Shown: positions 1,815 to 41,754, numbered from the stretch's first letter. The stretch: DNA of 42,897 nt from a virus (IMGVR_UViG_3300036713_000542:1-42897); one strand, 5' to 3'. A program made the numbers and translations. The notes: a model not told the origin generated them from the letters alone.

Positions 1815-4295
1815 TCAGGCCGAGGCTAGGCCAATCCCGTGGAAGACTAGTCCTTTGTTGTCCCGCCTTTTGACAACCCCGTCCTTGCCCTCTATTCTGC
1901 TGTAGAAGGCCTTCTTCCCGAGCTGCTTCTGCCTCTCTCCGCTGCTGTAGGAGTAGGAGGTGTAGGAGGTCCACAGCTCCTTTGCCGGGACTTTAGCATC
2001 CTTGGCCAGGTGACACCTCTCCTCCAGGAAAAAGCATAAGGGATCCTCCTCGGTCTTGTACCGCTCCGTTTCCCACCTCAGCTTCTCTGGTATCTGCAGC
2101 CCCACGCTGTGGTATTCCATGGCCCCCTGTATCAGATAGTTCAGGATCCCCGCAGACTCCCCGACGAGCTTGTATTTTAGCCTGGGGTCGGTGCCGGGAG
2201 CTCCCTCGAGGAACTGCTGCTGGAACGGGATCAGGCAGATGCGCTCCCAGATCGCCCGATCCTGCCCGAAGATCCTGGGCTTGTGGTTTGTGGCCATGAT
2301 CAGAAGGCCTCGTGGCTCGAGGAGGAAGGGATCCTTCCTCAGGAACCGCGCCTGGATCTTCTCTCCTCCCGTGTACTGCTTCACCAGGGACTCGTCCAGC
2401 CGCTTCCCTATGTTGGTCTCCTCAGCTACCGCGAACCTCCTCCCGCTCAGGGCGGCGAGGTCGCAGCGGATCCCCTCGTGCTGCTTTTCGAGGAAGGTGT
2501 CCGACCCTACCTGGTAGTAGTACTCCCCCACGATCTGGGAGAGGACGTGGATTAGGGTCGTCTTCCCGTTGCGCCCCCCTCCCCACAGGATGGGGAGCTT
2601 GTGTTCTATGTTGAGGCCACACAGGCCGTAGCCGAGCAACCTCAGCAGAAACGACCTCGTCTCCGGATCCGGCATGACCTCCCGAAAGAACTTGTCGAAC
2701 AGGGGCGAGGTGGCGTCCGGGTCGAACTCCACAGGGGATTCCACGGTCGGGTATCTCAGGGGGTCGTGTGGGAGGAGGTCCCCGGTCCTCAGGTCCAGCA
2801 CTCCGTTCTTCACCACCAGGAGATTCTCCAGGTGGTTTCCCTGGAACGGGTCGTCCCCCACGTCGAGCTTCCCTCTGGCAAGAAACTCCATAGCAACCAG
2901 CGCCCCTCGAGATTGGGACCTTGTGGCGCAGCCTCGCCAGAACTTCCTCGAGTCGTCGTCCCCTGCTGCTGTGGCTTCGGCGTGGAGCTGCTGCCCTACC
3001 GCTTCGGCTCGGAGGATCACGGACGGCTCAGAAATGGGCTTCCATATTCTCCCAGTCCATCTCATCCAATCCCTCTCCCGGCACCAGCACAGGGAGTCGC
3101 AGTAGATCCTGGCGAACCTCTGGCTGTTGCCGACGTCGGTGCCCTCCTGCCACCGCTCCGGCAAAGGCACCTCTCCCCCCTTCTCCTCGTCCACCTGTCC
3201 TGCTGCCTGCCCTGCTGCCCTTTCGAGCTTCGACCACGAGCCCTCGAGCCAGCACTTCCCCTGCTCGGCGTGGTGGTCCACGTACCAAACAGCCGCAGCG
3301 GTCTTCTCCAAGAGCCACTCGGAGGTGATGGGGCAGCCGAGCCACAGGGCGTAGATGTCGTTTCGGCAGGAGAACAGGGACATTTCTTTCCCGATGCAGC
3401 CCAACAGGAAGGCCGTTTGGGACCGGTCGGGCTTGCCTGGGGACCCCTCGTTCCAAATTTTCATCTGGTCGGCAGACGCCTGTGCTAAAAATGCCTTGCG
3501 CACAGAGGGCTCGCGGTCCACAATATCGTCGATGTCCAGGTCATCGACATCTCCGCTCTGCCGATCTTCTCCGATGAGGTGCTGCGAGGTTCCCCCACCA
3601 TTCCCCTCAATCCCCTTTAGGAGAGATCGGCAGAGCTCTTCTCTCCCATATACCCTCCCCTCATCTACCCACAGAACCTTGCACCGCAGCGGCTCGCTGG
3701 GGTCCTTTCTGTGGGTGGAGCCCGGTATCCTCAGCACTCTGGAGACATCCGAGGTGTTGTCCCCTCCCACAGCTCTAGAGAGGGCTTTCATGAGGGATTC
3801 TGCTTCGGGCAGGTCGTTGCCTTCGTAGGGCTCCTCGAGCTTCCAGTAGGCATGCAGGCCTCGTCCTGAGGAGACCAGGGCAGAAGGTTGGAACCGCACG
3901 GAGTCCAGGGAGACTTTGGCGGCTGCGGCTGCCTGCTTCCGTGCCTCTTCGGAGGCGTTGCGCCAGGCGGTCTCCTTGTCGGTTTTCTTCGCTGCGGACC
4001 GCAGCGGCTCGAAGTCCAGGTAGTCTATGTCGAGCCAGAGCATGCAGATTCTGGACACGTCGGATTTCTTCCCGCGTCCCCTGGCAGGCAGCTTCGAGAG
4101 ATTCCCCAGGCCGAAAAAGACGCCTTGCGTGTCCGGAGTGTCGTACTCCTCAAGGACGTTGATGGCTTCTTCGGCAGACGAAACGAAAGTGTGCCTTCGG
4201 AGAGGGTCGAACTTGCATATTGAAAATAGGCACGAGGTACTGGGCGGGTGGATCATGCGGAGCAGAGACAGATTGAGCACGGTCTCTTCGGTCAT
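1815..4295 (-). CDS. Primase-helicase: N-terminal AEP/RepB-like primase plus D5/P4-family SF3 helicase
   Basis: LWLDIDY, SSGRGLHAYW and RVLRIPGS primase motifs; TDVGNSQRF and KNGVLDLRTG D5_N-like motifs; Walker A GGGRNGKTT; TGGEKIQARFL; ATNHKP. Confidence 0.92.
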   Translation of the reverse strand: MTEETVLNLSLLRMIHPPSTSCLFSICKFDPLRRHTFVSSAEEAINVLEEYDTPDTQGVFFGLGNLSKLPARGRGKKSDVSRICMLWLDIDYLDFEPLRSAAKKTDKETAWRNASEEARKQAAAAAKVSLDSVRFQPSALVSSGRGLHAYWKLEEPYEGNDLPEAESLMKALSRAVGGDNTSDVSRVLRIPGSTHRKDPSEPLRCKVLWVDEGRVYGREELCRSLLKGIEGNGGGTSQHLIGEDRQSGDVDDLDIDDIVDREPSVRKAFLAQASADQMKIWNEGSPGKPDRSQTAFLLGCIGKEMSLFSCRNDIYALWLGCPITSEWLLEKTAAAVWYVDHHAEQGKCWLEGSWSKLERAAGQAAGQVDEEKGGEVPLPERWQEGTDVGNSQRFARIYCDSLCWCRERDWMRWTGRIWKPISEPSVILRAEAVGQQLHAEATAAGDDDSRKFWRGCATRSQSRGALVAMEFLARGKLDVGDDPFQGNHLENLLVVKNGVLDLRTGDLLPHDPLRYPTVESPVEFDPDATSPLFDKFFREVMPDPETRSFLLRLLGYGLCGLNIEHKLPILWGGGRNGKTTLIHVLSQIVGEYYYQVGSDTFLEKQHEGIRCDLAALSGRRFAVAEETNIGKRLDESLVKQYTGGEKIQARFLRKDPFLLEPRGLLIMATNHKPRIFGQDRAIWERICLIPFQQQFLEGAPGTDPRLKYKLVGESAGILNYLIQGAMEYHSVGLQIPEKLRWETERYKTEEDPLCFFLEERCHLAKDAKVPAKELWTSYTSYSYSSGERQKQLGKKAFYSRIEGKDGVVKRRDNKGLVFHGIGLASA

Positions 4296-4369
4296 CGAGA
4301 GATCTCCTGTGGATGAGGTTTCCGGATTGTCTAGGGTACTCGATGCCGAGGTCTGGCGGGAGGGGCATT

Positions 4370-4398
4370 TTGAAAAAATGTAGGTTTTTGCCTACACA
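4370..4398 (+). promoter_or_regulatory. Putative rightward early promoter with an overlapping palindromic operator
   Basis: TTGAAA-N17-TACACA. Palindrome TGTAGG-N6-CCTACA at 4379-4396. Lies in the divergent intergenic gap. Confidence 0.45.
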
Positions 4399-4439
4399 CG
4401 CTCGGTCGCATCTGCTAGGCTTGGAGGTCAGTGTGACGA

Positions 4440-4479
4440 GGACGGCAAAGGACGGAAAAGGACGGCAAAGGACGGAAAT
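4440..4479 (+). repeat. Four 10-bp direct repeats GGACGG(C/A)AA(A/T)
   Basis: Directly visible just upstream of the pentapeptide gene. Confidence 0.85.
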
Positions 4480-4491
4480 GGGAAAGAAGCG

Positions 4492-4941
4492 ATGAACGTG
4501 AACGGATACGAGATCGGACCCGGCGCGAGTCTGTGCGACGCGAACCTGCGCAGAGCGGACCTGCAATACGCGAACCTGAGCGACGCGAACCTGCGCAGAG
4601 CGGACCTGTACGGCGCGAACCTGAGCTGCGCAAACCTGAACGGCGCAAACCTGAGCGACGCGAACCTGCGCAGAGCGGACCTGCAATACGCGAACCTGAG
4701 CGACGCGAACCTGCGCAGAGCGGACCTGTACGGCGCGGACCTGAGCTGCGCAAAACTGAACGGCGCAAACCTGAGCGACGCGAACCTGCGCGGCGCGAAC
4801 CTGCAATACGCGAACCTGAGCGGCACCACCCTCTGTGGCGCGAACATGGACGGTGCGGATCTCGGTCCAGACGCAACCCAGGGTCCGGGCAGGTACGTCT
4901 GGATACTGACCTTGGCGGAAGCCAGGTGGTTCGGGGGATGA
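4492..4941 (+). CDS. Pentapeptide-repeat protein
   Basis: Continuous A(N/D)Lxx repeats with an internal 120-bp (40-aa) duplication. Confidence 0.93.
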   Translation: MNVNGYEIGPGASLCDANLRRADLQYANLSDANLRRADLYGANLSCANLNGANLSDANLRRADLQYANLSDANLRRADLYGADLSCAKLNGANLSDANLRGANLQYANLSGTTLCGANMDGADLGPDATQGPGRYVWILTLAEARWFGG

Positions 4942-4975
4942 GGGGTGAGTAGACAGCCCGGAGAGACGGGCACTA

Positions 4976-5078
4976 GCTCGCTGGGGTGGCCTGGGATGCC
5001 GCGACTGGCAATGGTAGCCTACTGCGGGGAATGGCGCTGTCACGTCTCCCAGACCCGGTTCGAATCCGGGAGCGCGCA
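4976..5078 (+). ncRNA. tRNA-like RNA unit 1
   Basis: Acceptor GCTCGCT/AGCGCGC (one mismatch) + A; T-arm CCCGG-TTCGAAT-CCGGG; D-like arm GTGGC-CTGGGAT-GCCGC; 71-nt interior. Confidence 0.8.
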
Positions 5079-5213
5079 TGAGATCCAGGGGAATCCCCGG
5101 TAACGGGTAGCACGGATTGGCGGGGCGAGCGAACCCCATACCCCCGTCCGAACAGCAGGCGTGGCATCTCGGCGTACCACCCGTCGCAGGCCTGCAGGTG
5201 GGAGATCGGGCCG

Positions 5214-5291
5214 AGCGGTATAGCTCAGCCAGGTAGAGCAGCCAGCATTCCGGAGTGCTGGTGGTCGCTGGTCCAAATCCAGCTGCCGCGA
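5214..5291 (+). tRNA. Atypical tRNA with an over-long anticodon arm; identity not assignable
   Basis: GCGGTA/TGCCGC acceptor with a 1:72 mismatch; canonical D-arm TAGCTCAGCCAGGTAGAGC; T-arm GCTGG-TCCAAAT-CCAGC; 22-nt anticodon arm GCCAGCATTCCGGAGTGCTGGT. Confidence 0.75.
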
Positions 5292-5330
5292 AGCTCGATC
5301 TATACAGCCCGGAAAGACGGGCACTAGGAG

Positions 5331-5534
5331 ATGACCGTGCGGATACCGTTCATTCGGATTGCGCTGAAAAATAGGGTGGTCAGGATCAACGTCTACGCTG
5401 AATACCTGTATTCGGTAGCTAGTTATCGATGGTTCTGCACTGTGCTATGGACGGTCATTTTCCGTTGCCGAGACCTGTCCGCAGCAATAATTGATTTGAT
5501 AACAATGCTTTTAGAAGTGGAGATACGTGATTAG
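5331..5534 (+). CDS. Small AT-rich hydrophobic protein (GTG at 5337 is an alternative start)
   Basis: Directly follows repeat copy 2, whose end forms AGGAG. Visibly lower GC than its flanks. Confidence 0.5.
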   Translation: MTVRIPFIRIALKNRVVRINVYAEYLYSVASYRWFCTVLWTVIFRCRDLSAAIIDLITMLLEVEIRD

Positions 5535-5608
5535 CCGACCGGGACCCGCCTGGACGCTGTTCAGGGAGGTAAAAGCAGGAGGCTGACAGCCCGGAAAGAC
5601 GGGCACTG

Positions 5609-5702
5609 GCGCGCCGTGGCGATGTGGAATCGCATATGGAGAAACCCGAACCTGGCGGACACGAAAATCCAGGTCGTTCCGGTTCGAATCCGGAGGTGCG
5701 CA
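5609..5702 (+). ncRNA. tRNA-like RNA unit 2
   Basis: Acceptor GCGCGCC/GGTGCGC + A; T-arm TCCGG-TTCGAAT-CCGGA; D-like arm GCGAT-GTGGA-ATCGC; arm ACCTGG/CCAGGT; 62-nt interior. Confidence 0.82.
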
Positions 5703-5827
5703 TCGGCGAAAGCTGGCGACGGGAGTAGACGTTGTGAGGGCGGCGTATCCGACCCGTACTACTCGTGAAGACGACGGAAGTGGGGGCAGGTCCCACATGT
5801 CGAGACAGCCCGGAAAGACGGGCACTA

Positions 5828-5937
5828 GCGCGCTCGAGAATCTGTCTGTGATAGTTGCTGTACAGCGAGTCATGGCAGGGGACGGATCGCACCTTGGTAC
5901 AGCCTCGGTGTTCCCGGTTCGAATCCGGGGGCGCGCA
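5828..5937 (+). ncRNA. tRNA-like RNA unit 3
   Basis: Acceptor GCGCGCT/GGCGCGC + A; T-arm CCCGG-TTCGAAT-CCGGG; 78-nt interior with two long hairpins. Confidence 0.82.
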
Positions 5938-6244
5938 TGAGTGAGGTCGCCGGCGGACAGGTGCAGCCGGGAGGGGGTAAGCCGCCCCAGGGCAGTATGC
6001 GGAGAGCCTCGGACCGGGGCTCCACGGAAACGGAAGCGGCCAAAACGGCCAACGGGTGTCGGAAGCAGGGATGCATCGGGGGTCGAGAGCGAGGGAAGAC
6101 AATGGATTCTTGAGTGAGACAGCCCGGAAAGACGGGCACTAGAAAGGGATGCCAGGTATGACTATGGGATAGTAGAGCATTCCCGCCGCAGGGGAAACTG
6201 ACGCCTGGCGATAACCTGCTGACAGCCCGGAAAGACGGGCACTA

Positions 6245-6326
6245 GCGCGTCAAGGCGAAGGAAGCCAGCCTGATAGGTGAGCCGTGGCCACGGCATCTTT
6301 TCCCGGTCCGATTCCGGGGACGCGCA
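6245..6326 (+). ncRNA. tRNA-like RNA unit 4
   Basis: Acceptor GCGCGTC/GACGCGC + A; T-arm CCCGG-TCCGATT-CCGGG; D-like GGC-GAAGGAA-GCC; stub arm GCCT-GAT-AGGT; arm GCCGTG/CACGGC; 50-nt interior. Confidence 0.82.
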
Positions 6327-6475
6327 TGTTCCCAGGCAGGCCAGTTGAAAAACTGCGTATGGTTTCGAGCGCCGATCTGCCCGGTTCTCGGCGAGCAGCG
6401 AGGAGTGGATAACTGCGGTCGGCCACCTGACCAAAGCCTCGTGTAGTGGTTGACAGCCCGGAAAGACGGGCACTA

Positions 6476-6567
6476 GCGCGTCAGAGCAGCCTGGTGGCTG
6501 CCGTCTTCCCACAGGCGACAGATAGGGTGGGACTATCTCAGGCTGGGTTCGATTCCCAGGACGCGCA
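6476..6567 (+). ncRNA. tRNA-like RNA unit 5
   Basis: Acceptor GCGCGTC/GACGCGC + A; T-arm CTGGG-TTCGATT-CCCAG; D-arm GCAGCC-TGGT-GGCTGC; arms CGTCT-TCCCAC-AGGCG and AGATAG-GGTGGGA-CTATCT. Confidence 0.85.
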
Positions 6568-6592
6568 TAGCTCGAGGGTGGTCCTCGAGCGC

Positions 6593-6650
6593 AACGGTCG
6601 GCGCTGCTCGTCGTGGTGGCGAGTGGCAGCGGTTTTAGCCGACCGTTTTT
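6593..6650 (+). terminator. Long hairpin followed by a T-tract closing the RNA array (possible terminator or attenuator)
   Basis: AACGGTCGGC...GCCGACCGTT forms a 10-bp closing stem followed by TTT. Confidence 0.45.
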
Positions 6651-6668
6651 CCACAAGAGAGGTGTAGA

Positions 6669-8366
6669 GTGATACTGTCTGCCAGCCAATTGCAGCTATT
6701 CCGGGATTGCCCCAGGAAGTGGTTCCTCAAATACGTCTCCAGGCTCCCAGAGACGCCTTCCGCGAATCGCATCCCTGGGAGCGTGGCGCATGCCTGCGCG
6801 GCTGCGATCCTCGAGGGGAAGGACCCCTACAGGGATGGGTGGCAGATCTGCCGCAATCCCTTCCGTCCGTCCGAGATCCAGGGGCAAATCAACGTGCTCC
6901 AGGCGCAGCAGATCCAGACCCTCCTGACCCTGGCGAAGAAGAACGGGATGTTGGTCCGGCACCGGGACCTGAAGACCGAGTGGAAATTCCAGGAGCTGGT
7001 GCCGGGATACCCCAACCCGCAATTCCCCGAGACCATCAAGTTTATGGGGTCTGTGGACTCGGCGAGGTTCTCTTCCGCGACCACCGTCCCGGAAATCACC
7101 GATCACAAATTTACTAAGAATATCAAATATGCGTTGTCGCCCAAGGCGCTGGCCTCGGATGCGCAGATGGCCACCTACGCACACTTCCTCCCTGGAGACT
7201 GGGAGAGCTGCCTGCTGATCCACAACTACTATCAGTGGGATCCGGCAGAGGTGCGGCGGGTGGAGGCGCTGGTCCACAGGGGGTTTGTGGACGAGGTTTG
7301 GCGGGAGCAGATGGTCCCTCAGATAGGCGCGATGGCGGATATGCGGACGTTGTTCGCGGGTCGCTGGGATCCAGCCAAGCCCTTGGAGTCCTTGTCGGAG
7401 ATGCCATCTCCGGTCAAAGGCGCGTGTCAACAGTACGGGGGCTGCCCCTTCCAGCCGATCTGCTCTGGAGTGGAGGGCTGCGAGGCCTACAGGACGAGGG
7501 TAGCAGCCCTAATGAAGAGAGCCGAGCGGGTGGCCGCCGGTCTGCCGGAGATGACCAACGATGAAAAAAAGGAGCTCATGGTGGGATTTCGAGACAAGCT
7601 CAGGAAGATGCAGTCTGCAATCGCGGGAAAGGAAGCGGAGCCGACCGTTCCGTCCTCCGAGGCACAGGCTCCGGCACCTGCGGGTGATCCGGCTCCGAAA
7701 GCAGCGGAGAAAGTCAAAGAGGCTGTGGCAAGCGGCCCGCCCTGGGCGGATCAAAATTGCCGTGCCTGCGAGGGGAAGGGTTTCAACACCGAGGGGACTC
7801 CCTGCCCTATCTGCGTTTTCACCGCTCGTCGCGCTCGACGAGGTCCGCTGCCTGCCGAACTGAAGGACGCGGAGATAGACGCCTGGAGGCAGGCTGTCAT
7901 CGGCGAAGGGTCTGCCCAGAAGGACCGGTCGACGGTGGTTGCGAAGCCCGAGCCGAAGCCCGAGCCGAAGCCCGAGCCGAAGCCCGAGCCGGTGCCTCTG
8001 ACCTACGAGCCCGCCTCCGTGGAGGTAACGTGGACCAGCTCCTCCGAGGAGCCCCGAGACAGGGCTCCTTGGACGGTCTTCGCGATCGACTGTTGCGTGG
8101 AGAACTGGGACGGTCACTGCTCCCTGGACTCGATCCTGCAGCCCCTGAGGGAGAGCATGGCGGCTGCGGCGGGCATGAGCTTCTTCGCAATCGACTTCTT
8201 CAAACGGAAGGACGCGCTGCTGGAGCATTCTGAAAAAATCGCCGACAGGATGGAGGGGCTCGTGGTGTCGGTGACCCGGACGCGGGAGAACGACGAAATG
8301 GTCCTGGAGCTCTCCCGGATCCTGCAGCTGCGGGGAGCTTTGGTGGTGAGGGGGATGCCCCGGTGA
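6669..8366 (+). CDS. PD-(D/E)XK (RecB/Cas4-like) exonuclease with a C-terminal Zn finger and KPEP linker
   Basis: LSASQL..F.DCPRKW, G...H, G.VD, ITDHKF, Q...Y and C..YGGCPF..IC (Fe-S-type Cys pattern); CRACEGKG..CPIC. Confidence 0.88.
   Translation: MILSASQLQLFRDCPRKWFLKYVSRLPETPSANRIPGSVAHACAAAILEGKDPYRDGWQICRNPFRPSEIQGQINVLQAQQIQTLLTLAKKNGMLVRHRDLKTEWKFQELVPGYPNPQFPETIKFMGSVDSARFSSATTVPEITDHKFTKNIKYALSPKALASDAQMATYAHFLPGDWESCLLIHNYYQWDPAEVRRVEALVHRGFVDEVWREQMVPQIGAMADMRTLFAGRWDPAKPLESLSEMPSPVKGACQQYGGCPFQPICSGVEGCEAYRTRVAALMKRAERVAAGLPEMTNDEKKELMVGFRDKLRKMQSAIAGKEAEPTVPSSEAQAPAPAGDPAPKAAEKVKEAVASGPPWADQNCRACEGKGFNTEGTPCPICVFTARRARRGPLPAELKDAEIDAWRQAVIGEGSAQKDRSTVVAKPEPKPEPKPEPKPEPVPLTYEPASVEVTWTSSSEEPRDRAPWTVFAIDCCVENWDGHCSLDSILQPLRESMAAAAGMSFFAIDFFKRKDALLEHSEKIADRMEGLVVSVTRTRENDEMVLELSRILQLRGALVVRGMPR
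7942..7991 (+). repeat. 12-bp coding tandem repeat (KPEP x4)
   Basis: CGAAGCCCGAGC repeated. Confidence 0.9.
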
Positions 8367-13559: not shown

Positions 13560-14375
13560 GTGAAAAAGGGGGCTGAAGGGAGGGTTCCTGTGACCTTTCA
13601 GACTCTACTCCTTTGGAAGGGAGTGGACCTGGACGAGAAGGTATCCATAGCTCTGGAGACAATCCGACAATATGCTCCCAAGGAGGGGTACTACGGGTGT
13701 TTTTCCGGAGGCAAGGACAGCGTGGTGGTAAAAGATCTCGTCACGAGAGCAGGAGTGGGAGCGAGCTGGAGCTATAACGTAACCACTATCGACCCTCCAG
13801 AATTGTGCAGAAGCATCCGCAGGCACCACCCGGAGGTGGTATGGCAGAAGCCCAAAAAAAGTCTATGGAAAGCTGTGGCAACTAATGGTCTTCCCACTCG
13901 AAGATTGCGGTGGTGTTGCAAATTGTACAAAGAGAGATGGGGAACCGGAAGAGTAAAGCTGACGGGGATAAGGGCCGCTGAGTCCTCCAATCGAAAAGCC
14001 TCGTGGTCCACTATCACCAAATCCCGAAAGGGAGGATGGTTCGTAAACCCTATTCTATTTTGGACAGACGAGGATGTGTGGGAATACATCGAGAGAGAAA
14101 GGCTCCCTGTTTGCGGTCTGTATTCCGAGGGATGGAAGAGGCTGGGGTGCATCGGGTGCCCCTTCAATTCTCGACGAATAGAGCAGTTTAAAAGGTGGCC
14201 CCTGTTTGAGAAGGGGTGGAGAAAGGCTGCCCAGTCTCGATGGGACCGAATGATAGAGAGGAAGCTGAACAACAGAACCTTGAGGACTTTTCGGGATTCT
14301 GGGGAGTGGTTCGAGTGGTGGCTCTCGAACAAAAGCATGCCCGCAGATCCTGGATGTCTTTCGTCTTTTGTCTAA
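13560..14375 (+). CDS. PAPS-reductase-family (PP-loop) protein
   Basis: FSGGKDS, RWCC..YKE, TGIRAAES..R, NPILFWT..DVW.YI and RLGCIGCP motifs. Confidence 0.9.
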   Translation: MKKGAEGRVPVTFQTLLLWKGVDLDEKVSIALETIRQYAPKEGYYGCFSGGKDSVVVKDLVTRAGVGASWSYNVTTIDPPELCRSIRRHHPEVVWQKPKKSLWKAVATNGLPTRRLRWCCKLYKERWGTGRVKLTGIRAAESSNRKASWSTITKSRKGGWFVNPILFWTDEDVWEYIERERLPVCGLYSEGWKRLGCIGCPFNSRRIEQFKRWPLFEKGWRKAAQSRWDRMIERKLNNRTLRTFRDSGEWFEWWLSNKSMPADPGCLSSFV

Positions 14376-27426: not shown

Positions 27427-27786
27427 CTACAGGAGCCGATACCAGATCGGCCCGGCTACCTGCACGCCAGCCGAGATGGCCAGCTGGAGAGCCTCGCCCT
27501 CTGCGGTGCGGATATTGGATCCAGAGTGGATGTCGAAATAGTAGTATCCTGCGGAGCCGAAAGGCTCGCTGGTGCCGCCCACAATCGCAGACGTCCCCGA
27601 ATACCACGTGATGGTGCAGGCCCCGGCAATCCTGAGCCTGGCTCGGACCAGCTGGATTTTCCGGCCCGTGACAGCAGCCAAGACCTCGTGAGTCGCAGCA
27701 GTGTTTTCGTCGAAGTCCACCGCACCCGTGGCCACAATCAGCGGTCCCGGAGGAAAATGCAGCAGATCCGGAGTGTGAGTAGCCAT
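27427..27786 (-). CDS. Hypothetical virion-associated protein
   Basis: Operon packing with GGAG RBS. Confidence 0.6.
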   Translation of the reverse strand: MATHTPDLLHFPPGPLIVATGAVDFDENTAATHEVLAAVTGRKIQLVRARLRIAGACTITWYSGTSAIVGGTSEPFGSAGYYYFDIHSGSNIRTAEGEALQLAISAGVQVAGPIWYRLL

Positions 27787-28415
27787 TATACGCTCCCTGT
27801 TATCGGTAGTGCTCTAGGCGATCTGCAGTCCCAGACCAGACAATCGGCTCTGTCTCCTGCTCCCACCCAAACCCCTCCCAGGAACTCTAGCTCATCTCTG
27901 CGCCAGAGCTTCCGGTGGGCCTCATGAGGATTCCCGAACAACTCTCCCTGGGGGACCCAGTACATTATGCCCTTCTTCACTCTCACCAAAGGAGTGGAGA
28001 CTATCACAGCTCGAGCCGCTACCCTCCTGGACTGCTCCAGAGCTGCCTCCCCTTCCTCTCCCGTAACATGCTCCAGAGAATCCCCGAAGATTACGAAATC
28101 AAAGGCATTATCCGCCACCGTGGGCAGATAGCTTCGGAAATCCCCCATATCTCCCAGGATCAGAGAATCATACAGATCGTGGCGCAAAGGGCCGAAGTTG
28201 TTTCTTTGATACTCCCTGAGATCCTCATCGAGCAGATACTTGGCGTATATTTCCAATCCAACTATGCGGGCCTGGGGGCAGTACTCCCGAATGACGTAGG
28301 CAGTCTCTCCCCCTCCCATACCTAAGTCCAGGCACCGAATCTTCTCAGTAGGAGACGCGTGCCTCTGGAGTGCCTCCTTGATGTACTTGTGGGCTGTCTT
28401 ATCCGAGGTTGGCAT
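27786..28415 (-). CDS. Class I SAM-dependent methyltransferase
   Basis: CLDLGMGGG, GLEIY and FDFVIFGDSLEH motifs. Confidence 0.88.
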   Translation of the reverse strand: MPTSDKTAHKYIKEALQRHASPTEKIRCLDLGMGGGETAYVIREYCPQARIVGLEIYAKYLLDEDLREYQRNNFGPLRHDLYDSLILGDMGDFRSYLPTVADNAFDFVIFGDSLEHVTGEEGEAALEQSRRVAARAVIVSTPLVRVKKGIMYWVPQGELFGNPHEAHRKLWRRDELEFLGGVWVGAGDRADCLVWDCRSPRALPITGSV

Positions 28416-29478
28416 GGACCGCCTCCCTCCCCAGAGCCGTATCGTAAATATCCTGCATCCTCCCTCCGAAAATTCGGAGAGAGAACCTCTCGAGGGGGAA
28501 TTCTGCCATGCTGGGCCTGGGAGTCTCCAGAGCCTCCTTGATAGCTTCGGCGAAGCTCTCCAGGTCCCGAGACCTGCCCGTGAACGGCGTGTACCTGCAC
28601 CCGTCCCCCGCCACCACAGGAGTCCCGCAGGCCATGGCCTCCATCAGGCAGCGAGTGGCTATCGCATGGGGAGTCACCAGGAGATCCATGGCACGGTAAC
28701 CCTCGCAGATAGACTCCTTCCGGGCGTGGATTTCCCCGAGGCACCCGGCCCGGTCTGCCCCGGCCAGGAGCTGCTGCCAACAGGAAGCCTTCAAAAGATC
28801 CTCTTCAGCACCCCAGATGTGGACTTTCAGCCCCGGAAGGGAGCGAGACGCCAAGATGCACGCATTGAAGACCTCGAAGATGTCCTCGTCCTCCCGCCAG
28901 GAGTCGCACAGGAGCACATTGAACTCCCCTCGCTTCTCTTTTGGGATCTCGTACACCTTCCCCGAGCTCCGGTAGCGGTCCTGATCCAGAGGAGGATCCT
29001 CCGTGCAGAAGAGTTTTTCCTCCGGCACGACATTTGCCCAGTAGGGGAGATGCTCCCTCCAGAAGGTCACCAGACCCTTCACCCTGGGCCAGCTGGCCAG
29101 CTCTGGGATCAGGGAATACCCGTTCCGGGAAGGGCTCCTCTGCTCCGGACGGAAGCACGCGGAAGGCCTGCCATGCACCATCCACAGCAGCGGAGCCTGG
29201 CACTTGGCCAAATAGGAGTCGGAGACCCCGTCGTGGCAGATCCACAGATCCGCGTCCAGAGCCTCCCTCCAATCGGACGTGACCAGAGGCCATCCCCCCC
29301 TCGGATCCAAAGCCCCTACTCGAGGCTCCTCCCTCTCCCCTCCATCTCTCGCCACCAACCCGGTGTCACAAAATAGTACCTCGTGCCCCAAGAGAGTATC
29401 CGAGCGGACACAGTCTCGAGCAGCCTCGTAGAGCCCGCAACGAAAAGGGGAAAAAGGTGCCCAGTGTACGATCTTCAT
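28399..29478 (-). CDS. GT-B glycosyltransferase (GT4-like)
   Basis: MKIVH...LGHEV N-terminus; DLLVTP...LMEAMACGTPVV signature. Confidence 0.9.
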   Translation of the reverse strand: MKIVHWAPFSPFRCGLYEAARDCVRSDTLLGHEVLFCDTGLVARDGGEREEPRVGALDPRGGWPLVTSDWREALDADLWICHDGVSDSYLAKCQAPLLWMVHGRPSACFRPEQRSPSRNGYSLIPELASWPRVKGLVTFWREHLPYWANVVPEEKLFCTEDPPLDQDRYRSSGKVYEIPKEKRGEFNVLLCDSWREDEDIFEVFNACILASRSLPGLKVHIWGAEEDLLKASCWQQLLAGADRAGCLGEIHARKESICEGYRAMDLLVTPHAIATRCLMEAMACGTPVVAGDGCRYTPFTGRSRDLESFAEAIKEALETPRPSMAEFPLERFSLRIFGGRMQDIYDTALGREAVHANLG

Positions 29479-39843: not shown

Positions 39844-40509
39844 CTACAGGTAGCACTCAGCGGTAAACAGAGACTCGTCGGCTGCAGCATTGTCATACGT
39901 GACGTCGCAATTGGCGTGATTGCTTTTTATGGTCAGTGTATACGTCTTCGCGCTGGTTGTGGCGGGCGTGTCCTCCCACATGAACATACTCGGCCCGAGG
40001 CTCGGAGCCGTGGACGAAGATGCAGCAATCAGATTTCGCCCGATGAATCGCGCGCCGAGTGCCGTACCATTCGGGGGATTCCCAGCACCGCCGGTTGAAT
40101 CCCGGTGGCAATTCACCGCGCCAGCCCGGACGTTCAAACTCGCGCCGTCCCCAGTGGGTTTGAGCGTCCCACTCCAGAGGATCCGCACTTTGTGGCTCGA
40201 CGTCGGCGGCGTGATCGATATCTGATGCGTGGTTTCCACCTCGGTAGTGCCTGCAATCGTCTCGTCACCTCCCCCCGTGCCGGGCTGTGTGACGATTGTC
40301 GAGATGACGCCTGCAGCGCCGGTTGCGCCCGTGGCTCCGGTCGCTCCGGTCGCTCCGGTCGCTCCGGTTGCCCCTGCAGCTCCAGCTGCTCCGGTCGCTC
40401 CGTCTGCTCCCGTCGCTCCGGTCGCGCCGGTCGCGCCGGTCGCGCCTGTCGCTCCGGTCGCGCCTGTCGCTCCGGTCGCACCTGGGATGTCAGGGGAGAA
40501 ACCTCTCAT
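39844..40509 (-). CDS. Collagen-like fibre protein B
   Basis: About 19 Gly-Ala-Thr/Asp/Ala triplets followed by a beta-rich globular domain. Confidence 0.85.
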
Positions 40510-40769: not shown

Positions 40770-41056
40770 CGCTCTACCTCCAGCTCAGCTACTGCTCGGT
40801 CCGCTTCGTACTGTGCGGTCTCTCGCGCCGCTCTGATTTCAGCGACCTTGGCCTGGATCGCCCTCTCTCGAGCCCCGGCCAGGTCGCCCACGGCCTCAGT
40901 GCCGACCTGGCGAAAGGGCGCAATCCCCAGCGGCGGCCCGGACAGTGCGACAAGAGCGCAGCCACGGGGGCGAACGGGTAGCGTGCCGCCCTGCGCGTCG
41001 TGATCGATCACGGTGTCAATCCGCCCATCAGGCCAAACGTAGGCACTCCAGCTCAT
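40766..41056 (-). CDS. Small protein following collagen fibre A (possible fibre chaperone)
   Basis: ATGA overlap at 41053-41056; helical C-terminus. Confidence 0.6.
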
Positions 41057-41754
41057 GCTTTCGCCCTCAGGTATGTGGTGATGATCGTGCCGACACCCAG
41101 GCCCCCCGCGTGAGCCGCCGCTATCCTGACAGCCGTAATCGTCGAGATAGAAGCCCCTGGTTTGCACCCGTCGCAATAAAATGTGGTGCGGTCGGCTGGA
41201 TCCGCGCTCTCGATCCCCCTCAAATACTCGCCGACGAGGCAAACTCGCTCACCTGCAATGCTGATACGGACAAAACCGGAAGCCAACCCGCTCTGAAGAC
41301 AACTGAGAAGCTTTATGTCGTTCGCAGCCGTTATGATATTCATCGTACCGGTATTGTGGTAGTGATAGTAGCCACCCCTGTAGTAGTTCGAATCGGTGTA
41401 GTCGGCCTGCACATACGCGGAATACGATTCCGTCCCGGCGTAGTCGTTTACGATGTCAACCGATATCTCCAGCCTTTCCCCCTCGCTCATTGACACGCCA
41501 GGGATATCATAGGTCTGTATCGCTGACCCGGCCACCTCGTAGGAATCGACCAAGGTGAGTGCTCCAGCCGCCCCGGTTGCGCCGGTCGCTCCGGTCGCGC
41601 CGGTCGCTCCGGTCGCTCCGTCTGCTCCAGTCGCCCCGGTCGCTCCGTCTGCTCCAGTCGCCCCGGTCGCTCCGTCTGCTCCAGTCGCCCCGGTCGCTCC
41701 GTCTGCTCCAGTCGCCCCGGTCGCGCCCGGTATGTCAGGAGAGAAACCTCTCAC
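41053..41754 (-). CDS. Collagen-like fibre protein A
   Basis: About 18 GAT/GAD triplets. Same N-terminus ([10 protein letters not shown]) as fibre B but a different C-terminal domain. Confidence 0.85.

Follow-up and report, generated by a model that had tools for sequence, protein, structure and literature searches.

What role does a short hairpin play that recurs seven times, at irregular intervals, along a mostly untranslated stretch of a phage genome? The locus lies in the virus record IMGVR_UViG_3300036713_000542, a linear sequence of 42,897 bases (about 69% complete) that was analysed over its whole length and is referred to below as the window. The preliminary description of this locus saw in it a 24-nt, boxB-like repeat that served as the leader of exchangeable cassettes, and it named an antitermination site, an endoribonuclease site and a recombination handle as possible functions.

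An array of hairpins and tRNA-shaped units

Profile scans of 44 open reading frames (ORFs), picked from the 192 listed, and of a small ORF in the array found a lambda-family portal and terminase together with a primase, an exonuclease, a helicase and DNA polymerase A. The array occupies 1.7 kb of the + strand between a pentapeptide-repeat gene and the exonuclease gene (Table 1), ahead of the replication genes. A promoter scan of 4250-6800 returned 0 sites. The phage is present in two DNA runs only, both from one sediment sample; the sequencing runs that hold it include no RNA run, which has no bearing on expression. The search for relatives gave 0 of 5 candidates through the exonuclease and one weak locus, at 27%, through the primase. 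The array sequence had no match among phages and only weak matches of 31-37 nt among plasmids, and a pattern joining the motif to the acceptor of the window array found two viral loci and, in metagenomes, 0 and 2 loci, with no relative among them.

Several other features of this genome deserve mention in their own right. Three to four tandem 10-nt repeats at 4439-4478, in the divergent intergenic region between the primase and pentapeptide genes, could be an origin or an operator. A 12-nt tandem repeat within the exonuclease gene (7942-8001) encodes a Lys-Pro-Glu-Pro linker, and a PAPS-reductase-family gene lies inside the replication block (13560-14375). Methyltransferase and glycosyltransferase genes are found amid the structural genes (27786-29478), and two small proteins carry N-terminal collagen-like repeats (39844-40509 and 41053-41754).

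The 21-nt core of the repeat lies on the + strand at 4953, 5304, 5586, 5805, 6119, 6222 and 6453, with start-to-start spacings of 351, 282, 219, 314, 103 and 231. It is exact in six of the seven copies, copy 1 differing by its loop, GAGAGA, and its chance expectation is 0.00 (100 shuffles); no eighth copy occurs anywhere in the window at up to three mismatches. The near-identical and irregularly spaced copies of the preliminary description are thus confirmed. Each copy consists, from 5' to 3', of a tail (5 nt), a hairpin (5-bp stem, 6-nt loop) and a linker (4 nt), the identity among copies spans 22-25 nt, and one stem sequence is common to all of them; all are oriented with the flanking genes. 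The hairpin of copy 1 folds with z = -4.3 against shuffles. The tail reads AGACA in three copies, TGACA in three and ATACA in one, its first base being variable in the window. As for the extent of the repeat, a repeat had been rightly recognised, but its ends had to be moved: the element reaches 5' as far as the 5-nt tail, and the G that closes the 24-mer already belongs to the tRNA-like unit, as its base 1.

Copies 1, 3, 4, 6 and 7 are each followed, after exactly 4 nt, by a tRNA-like unit of 82-110 nt, in agreement with the five led units counted beforehand; a sixth unit (5214-5291), without a repeat ahead, was not in that count. The five have acceptor and T-arm sequence in common (repeat family D3; alignment), and all have the T arm and the 4-nt leader, with a normal D arm clear in only some. 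Their middles differ, and none has a regular anticodon arm. It had been stated that everything between the copies diverges, which holds for the middles but not for the shared acceptor and T-arm sequence. Across the acceptor and T stems, 98.8% of 85 cells are paired and five pairs are changed on both sides; the score was reached by 1-2 of 500 shuffles, a figure that comes from five related sequences and is hence not a probability.

Treated as canonical tRNAs, the units pass in their acceptor and T arms and fail in the anticodon arm. The folds contain no canonical 5-bp anticodon stem with a 7-nt loop: in unit 1b a 9-bp stem with a 4-nt loop stands in its place, and unit 7 has a 6-bp D stem, a long extra arm and a 6-nt loop at the anticodon position. 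CCA is encoded in none of the five motif-led units. An Rfam search of the whole window at gathering thresholds gave 0 hits; in a narrow Rfam search only unit 1b rose above the tRNA cut-off, and unit 7 scored 33.5 bits for tRNA-Sec, under the 47-bit cut-off. ARAGORN made two doubtful calls on the window. The "Cys" call of this program at 5865-5937, in unit 4, uses a different, unlikely 5' end.

The remaining two copies lead other cargo. Copy 2 precedes a small ORF, as had been noted, for which a homologue search found only the ORF itself and no usable Atlas match. Copy 5 does lead a different segment, of 78 nt, but the adjective "structured" that had been attached to it does not hold, as its fold is not above shuffles (z = -0.76). 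The same is true of all four array spacers tested (z +1.68, -0.53, -0.76 and +0.18), which are also without homologues.

Table 1. Features of the array and of its neighbours in the window.
Feature	Position	Strand	Remarks
Pentapeptide-repeat gene	4492..4941	+	Upstream neighbour, heads the array; ORF scans
Motif copy 1	4951..4975	+	Tail 4951-4955, hairpin 4956-4971, loop GAGAGA, 4-nt linker; 9 nt past pentapeptide stop
tRNA-like unit 1	4976..5078	+	103 nt; acceptor with 1 mismatch, T arm, long irregular middle, A73, no CCA; weakest fold, z +0.28
tRNA-like unit 1b	5214..5291	+	No motif ahead; Rfam tRNA 42 bits; normal D and T arms
Motif copy 2	5302..5326	+	Degenerate tail ATACA; 10 nt past unit 1b; leads small ORF
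Small ORF	5331..5534	+	67 aa; GC 0.46 vs 0.63 in remaining array; putative coding
Motif copy 3	5584..5608	+	Core search
tRNA-like unit 3	5609..5702	+	94 nt; irregular middle, no CCA; z -1.99
Motif copy 4	5803..5827	+	Core search
tRNA-like unit 4	5828..5937	+	110 nt; two long arms between acceptor and T arm, no CCA; z -2.40
Motif copy 5	6117..6141	+	Core search; assembly bubble departs from window sequence after 6144
Segment between copies 5 and 6	6142..6219	+	78 nt; not tRNA-like; fold z -0.76, not above shuffles
Motif copy 6	6220..6244	+	Core search
tRNA-like unit 6	6245..6326	+	82 nt; shrunken anticodon arm, no CCA; z -2.68
Motif copy 7	6451..6475	+	Core search
tRNA-like unit 7	6476..6567	+	92 nt; tRNA-Sec-like, no CCA; z -2.93
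Two strong hairpins	6570..6668	+	Between array and exonuclease gene; fold of 6570-6680, z -3.53
PD-(D/E)XK exonuclease gene	6669..8366	+	Downstream neighbour, first gene of helicase/DNA polymerase A block; ORF scans

A covarying hairpin between RNA modules

The window copies belong to a motif family with the consensus of a UGRCR tail, a 5-bp stem and a GAAAGA loop. About 140 viral stretches contain the 21-mer in its exact form and, with the two inner stem pairs left free, some 3,200 contain the motif (estimated from 3/64 parts); about 650 stretches of species genomes hold it, under record titles that span many phyla. A loose pattern was matched in 105 of 401 genomes of one phylum, at counts of about the level of the reversed control (as read from the table, not summed); separately, the transposon-bearing genome G004 has 35 loose-pattern matches. 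No family of Rfam 15 overlaps the motif in the window or in the 55 loci scanned, and a description of it was not found in the literature, where supplements of candidate-RNA catalogues (e.g. PMC8040213) could hold it unnamed. The family thus appears to be uncatalogued.

Complementarity is retained by both variable pairs at 118 of 124 distinct viral sites and at 110 of 121 distinct genome sites, as compared with shuffled means of 42 and 44 and maxima of 60 and 58, respectively. G-U outnumbers C-A at these pairs by 13:2 in viruses and 13:6 in genomes, which indicates that the motif acts on the sense strand as RNA. The sequence TGRCR adjoins the stem in 31 of 41 GAAAGA hairpins that had not been selected by the queries, and so the tail belongs to the hairpin. 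Covariation and tail together bear out the earlier proposal of an RNA-level hairpin with a conserved loop and 5' flank. Among the fetched loci the loop is GAAAGA in 275 (a count inflated by the queries), GAGAGA in 6 and GAACAGA in 4, and none of the permuted loop sequences is present more than five times. GA is kept at both loop ends, and this would be compatible with tandem sheared G-A pairs.

Cultured phages, among them phages of harmless hosts such as mEp390, BS-TP2 and Vibrio lentus phages, bear the motif as well, mostly in intergenic positions, and it is single in most sampled loci within the DNA fetched. One copy lies downstream of the Q gene of phage phiEt88. In phage mEp390, a long hairpin-rich leftward leader (L436:3000-3780) contains two copies, one of which is overlapped by an annotated 80-aa gene that may not be a real gene. 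Phage HK022 carries a longer-stem variant downstream of its lysis genes (L437:17863), with a UGGCG tail, an 8-bp stem and a GAAAGA loop, and a jumbo phage (L133:650-1390) has five copies, four of them at a 78-nt period, followed by a terminator-like hairpin.

The flanks were surveyed at 365 sites, 8 of 373 having been dropped for short flanks, by a downstream classifier that is crude and makes some false tRNA-like calls (e.g. L279, L345) as well as misses. A tRNA-like unit begins within 15 nt at 98 of the 365 sites; the controls gave 15 such units at 1004 random positions and none at 358 positions on the opposite strand. The spacer between hairpin and unit is 3-7 nt in 87 of the 98, with a mode of 4-5. 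ARAGORN detects 35 of these units and misses 63; CCA is encoded by 32, and many of the remaining units keep D and T arms around a long insert. Units in which tRNA acceptor, D and T arms surround a long variable insert, missed by ARAGORN, are seen at L123, L145, L152, L183, L296, L323 and other loci. An ORF with a ribosome-binding site follows at 47/365 sites (80/1004 controls) and a terminator just downstream at 28/365 (28/1004 controls). The survey of downstream cargo that had been recommended was thus rewarding for tRNA-like units, but at 192 of the 365 sites it found none of the listed cargo types.

The bases just 5' of the tail pair upstream at 0.39-0.45 against a baseline of about 0.32, and G makes up only 6-12% of the four bases 3' of the stem. 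Taken with the flank survey, the upstream pairing shows that the motif tends to separate two RNAs, with the closing helix of the first on its 5' side and the opening helix of the second on its 3' side. Sequence complementary to the motif was observed downstream 9 times, with 16.6 expected, and antisense pairing between cargo and motif is rejected on this basis; a complementary 7-mer in unit 1 is taken as chance.

The motif also marks places where similarity between loci breaks off. When loci with 40 nt in common on one side of the motif are clustered, similarity stops at the motif in 26 clusters (16 shared upstream, 10 downstream) and continues in 16; eight control offsets gave 1-10 one-sided and 7-22 two-sided clusters. 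One locus, L378, has a 370-nt cassette of motif and tRNA-like unit, bounded by motif copies, that is absent from L151. For the window itself, one contig of run X1 matches 6115-6144 and 6566-6595 over 30 bases each, thereby forming a bubble that spans 6144-6566 and begins 2-3 nt past copy 5. Its depth of 5.4 and that of the window path, 12.5, add up to about the flanking 17-18. A second contig of the run, of 527 nt, matches 6384-6436 only. These observations, in which a gap of the run at 4806-6100 was not counted and about 75% of the run was read, suggest sister array variants with other cargo, although they come from one sample and the short matches may stem from other organisms. The idea of a cassette junction is therefore upheld, in that cargo differs between relatives exactly at the motif and array variants seem to exist in the population, with the proviso that selection alone can also leave junctions at module boundaries. 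The term "cassette leader" captures half of the pattern: a downstream tie exists (10 clusters), but the tie to the upstream RNA is at least as frequent (16 clusters, and omega RNA).

An upstream tie is also seen in transposons. In IS200/IS605 elements the motif lies 18-52 nt past the match to HEARO (omega RNA), at the position where iscB otherwise begins; at six loci the Rfam HEARO match ends 25-52 nt before the motif, and the last hairpin of the omega RNA abuts the motif tail. From the best HEARO matches of motif-bearing genomes and of 61 other sampled genomes, 50 loci were fetched out of all matches, and 10 were dropped for short flanks. The 40 left comprise 22 with the motif only, 11 with an iscB start only, none with both and 7 with neither, the 22 being copies that are not independent and that come from four genomes chosen for carrying the motif. 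Whole iscB elements have the motif in 0 of 4 cases. In genome G002 one element family exists in both forms with like ends (iscB in L389 and L412, motif in L385). Protein-less omega RNA elements with the motif at the iscB start position are found among L381-L434 (G001-G004, G007, G017, G040, G042). Such elements hold no tRNA, no operon to read through and, as far as was examined, no phage context, which suggests a functional RNA in need of a 3' end.

A boundary element or a signal?

We put at about even odds the explanation that the repeat is the local copy of a widespread phage and transposon RNA hairpin motif serving as a boundary element, with an RNase P cut on one side and a protected 3' end on the other. 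A single transcript would extend from the pentapeptide gene across the array and on into the replication genes, and host RNase P would generate the 5' ends of the tRNA-shaped units by cutting 4 bases past the hairpin. Six tRNA mimics would thereby be freed, each keeping the acceptor/T half and having lost a working anticodon arm, while the upstream piece would keep the hairpin and a short tail as its protected 3' end. The tail left after the hairpin would be too short for 3'-5' exonucleases to load; in addition, the UGRCR tail and GA-NN-GA loop may form a compact fold or bind a host protein, either of which would block 3'-5' decay. At sites without a tRNA, the end could be made by another host cut in the G-poor linker or by a terminator. 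Recombination between copies probably adds, removes and reorders cassettes as a by-product, since the copies are identical over 22-25 nt.

Three features are explained in this way: the spacer, the helix upstream of the motif and the setting in omega RNA elements. The 3-7-nt range of the spacer argues for a cutter that is guided by the shape of the tRNA and not by the hairpin, and RNase P is known to recognise the D/T elbow, its holoenzyme gaining affinity as the leader grows from 2 to 5 nt (as reported in PMC4919922). Against it, no RNase P substrate follows copies 2 and 5, 267 of the 365 sampled sites lack a tRNA-like unit by the crude classifier, and the four tested spacers that would be "capped" in the window give no sign of being functional RNAs. 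Just before a terminator a second 3' cap would be redundant, and the motif is missing from one ORF-less omega RNA element (L415) whose genome was sampled independently, the positive elements having come from genomes picked for it. Moreover, a plain decay barrier would need less sequence conservation; the strictness of tail and loop calls for a partner or a tertiary fold, which goes beyond this account. It is because of the strict tail and loop, the pre-terminator copies and the window spacers that we rate a boundary element no higher.

The motif might instead be a processing signal in itself, with cleavage at the UGRCR tail or 5' of it, either by a sequence-specific endonuclease or by the RNA unaided, so that the upstream RNA is freed right after its last helix and the hairpin stays near the 5' end of the downstream RNA. 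We regard this as rather unlikely. Such a signal would work at sites without a tRNA, and it fits with the upstream helix that tends to end at the tail and with the omega RNA hairpin that abuts it. A 5' tail with a 5-bp stem and a purine loop resembles Cas6f substrates. To our knowledge, about 22 nt is far below the size of natural ribozymes, which speaks against a self-cutting motif, and the tail is not constant at its first position in the window. With a spacer of 3-7 nt, cleavage 3' of the stem could not yield mature tRNA 5' ends. The Cas6-type cutter of the preliminary description finds no backing: there is no Cas6 among the 44 ORFs scanned of a record that is about 69% complete, and the range of the spacer is unsuited to a ruler-type nuclease. 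The array has in common with CRISPR repeats that short identical hairpin repeats separate variable sequence; it was rejected as a CRISPR array on its irregular spacing of 103-351 nt, its tRNA-shaped cargo and the absence of a cas gene in the 44 ORFs. The fusion of self-processing RNAs to tRNA ends in phages, as described for theta ribozymes (PMC10879173), lends a processing signal some precedent.

A boundary element also has to be set against a transcription signal, boxB- or put-like, that would recruit a host or phage factor to RNA polymerase for read-through; we consider this improbable. The excess of adjoining terminators over controls points in this direction, as do the copies in the mEp390 leader and past the phiEt88 Q gene and the position of a long, mostly untranslated array ahead of replication genes. 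Like lambda boxB, the motif has a 5-bp stem and a purine-rich loop starting with G-A, and lies in untranslated sense-strand phage RNA. A nut site consists of boxA, a spacer and boxB, and is bound by N and Nus factors (as set out in PMC3177189), whereas the motif comes without boxA, has a 6-7-nt loop, a conserved 5' tail and many copies per array, and occurs in phages with hosts in many phyla. By the boxA consensus, boxA-like sequence was found at 5/370 positions upstream and 4/372 downstream (controls 2/357 and 5/365), which is no enrichment, and there is no boxA in 4300-6700. The motif loops do not form the GNRA-like pentaloop of boxB, and the motif is present in 0 of 5 reference genomes (lambda, phi80, Gifsy-1, K-12 and Sakai). 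The N family is absent among the 44 ORFs of the 69% complete record, where 11 arginine-rich candidates look off-frame. The put antiterminator RNA has two long stems that bind the beta' zinc domain (according to PMC9378689), and the motif is one 16-nt hairpin. The density of the copies (seven within 1.5 kb), the constant gap to the 5' ends of tRNA-like units and the location at the 3' end of a 300-nt transposon RNA are also hard to reconcile with a processive antiterminator. The nut/boxB reading advanced earlier is consequently abandoned, as it fails the boxA, pentaloop and lambdoid-presence tests.

There is likewise only a small chance that the repeat persists chiefly as a DNA-level handle for cassette exchange by recombination, with the RNA fold acting only as a folding insulator. 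Mosaic junctions do cluster at the motif, a cassette indel is bounded by its copies, the assembly bubble starts directly after copy 5, and this genome uses one stem sequence for all its copies. Across phages, however, the stem varies with compensation and G-U pairs, a pattern that lowers DNA homology and keeps the RNA fold; most sampled loci have a single copy within the DNA fetched, and the window copies all face the direction of the flanking genes. Mimicry of 23S rRNA, by which the motif would act on a host protein connected with the ribosome, as a decoy or as a docking site, is highly improbable: a stretch inside a bacterial 23S gene (L435:2389-2405, G425:C1), presumably the A2058 region, matches tail, 4-nt gap and loop exactly, but it is unable to form the stem, the bases of the A2058 region belong to a different helix in the ribosome, and the match was noticed after the fact.

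It is possible, though we hold it to be doubtful, that a 22-nt RNA end-cap common to phages of many bacterial phyla and to protein-less OMEGA transposons combines with anticodon-less tRNA scaffolds into a plug-in system by which small RNAs are made and shuffled. Such a system would be the bacterial analogue of MALAT1/mascRNA processing, its phage tRNA mimics would be a large class so far overlooked, and its reader would be an unrecognised universal host protein, unless the motif folds or cuts by itself. The presence of the motif across phages with hosts in many phyla and in transposons lacking the nuclease gene suggests that hosts share a general process of RNA maturation or decay which has yet to be linked to this signal. 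The tRNA-shaped phage RNAs that standard tRNA finders miss would be candidate decoys or carriers in phage-host conflict, and a portable 3' cap would help guide-RNA design.

Comparison with known systems

Several known systems share parts of this arrangement. Irregular tRNA and allo-tRNA polycistrons (Mukai et al., PMC5389517) resemble it in being arrays of tRNA shapes, some of them Sec-like, and some such tRNAs are described there as chargeable yet not used in translation; the set includes 8/4 and 9/3 forms, whereas the window units are 7/5 with replaced middles, and the word "repeat" is absent from the main text of that paper. Theta ribozymes (Kienbeck et al., PMC10879173) are likewise small phage RNA modules fused to tRNA genes and proposed as processors. 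These are HDV-like and sit at the tRNA 3' end, while the motif is a single hairpin on the 5' side; a theta or HDV-like ribozyme was rejected for the array, which has no double pseudoknot 3' of the tRNA and no Rfam ribozyme match. Protein-less IS200/IS605 elements with omega RNA are known as PATEs (Meers et al., bioRxiv 10.1101/2023.03.14.532601), a class to which the motif-bearing HEARO elements belong; the passages of that preprint that were consulted make no mention of a hairpin standing in for iscB. The C4 antisense RNA of P1 and P7, as reported in PMC11143913, provides the example of a phage non-coding RNA matured by host RNase P. A C4-type antisense RNA was rejected for the array itself, where there is no Rfam C4 match and no enriched complementarity.

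In MALAT1 and MEN-beta, a stabilising element, a triple helix, lies just upstream of a tRNA-like structure. RNase P cuts this tRNA-like structure, which sets the upstream 3' end and frees a small tRNA mimic, mascRNA or menRNA (PMC4919922, for MALAT1 in particular). MALAT1 and MEN-beta are eukaryotic and have a single unit, whereas the motif is a 22-nt hairpin in phage arrays, and the comparison is one of working and not of homology. By this analogy the processing mechanism would be a variant of a known logic, working most like punctuation by tRNA mimics with a 3' stabiliser.
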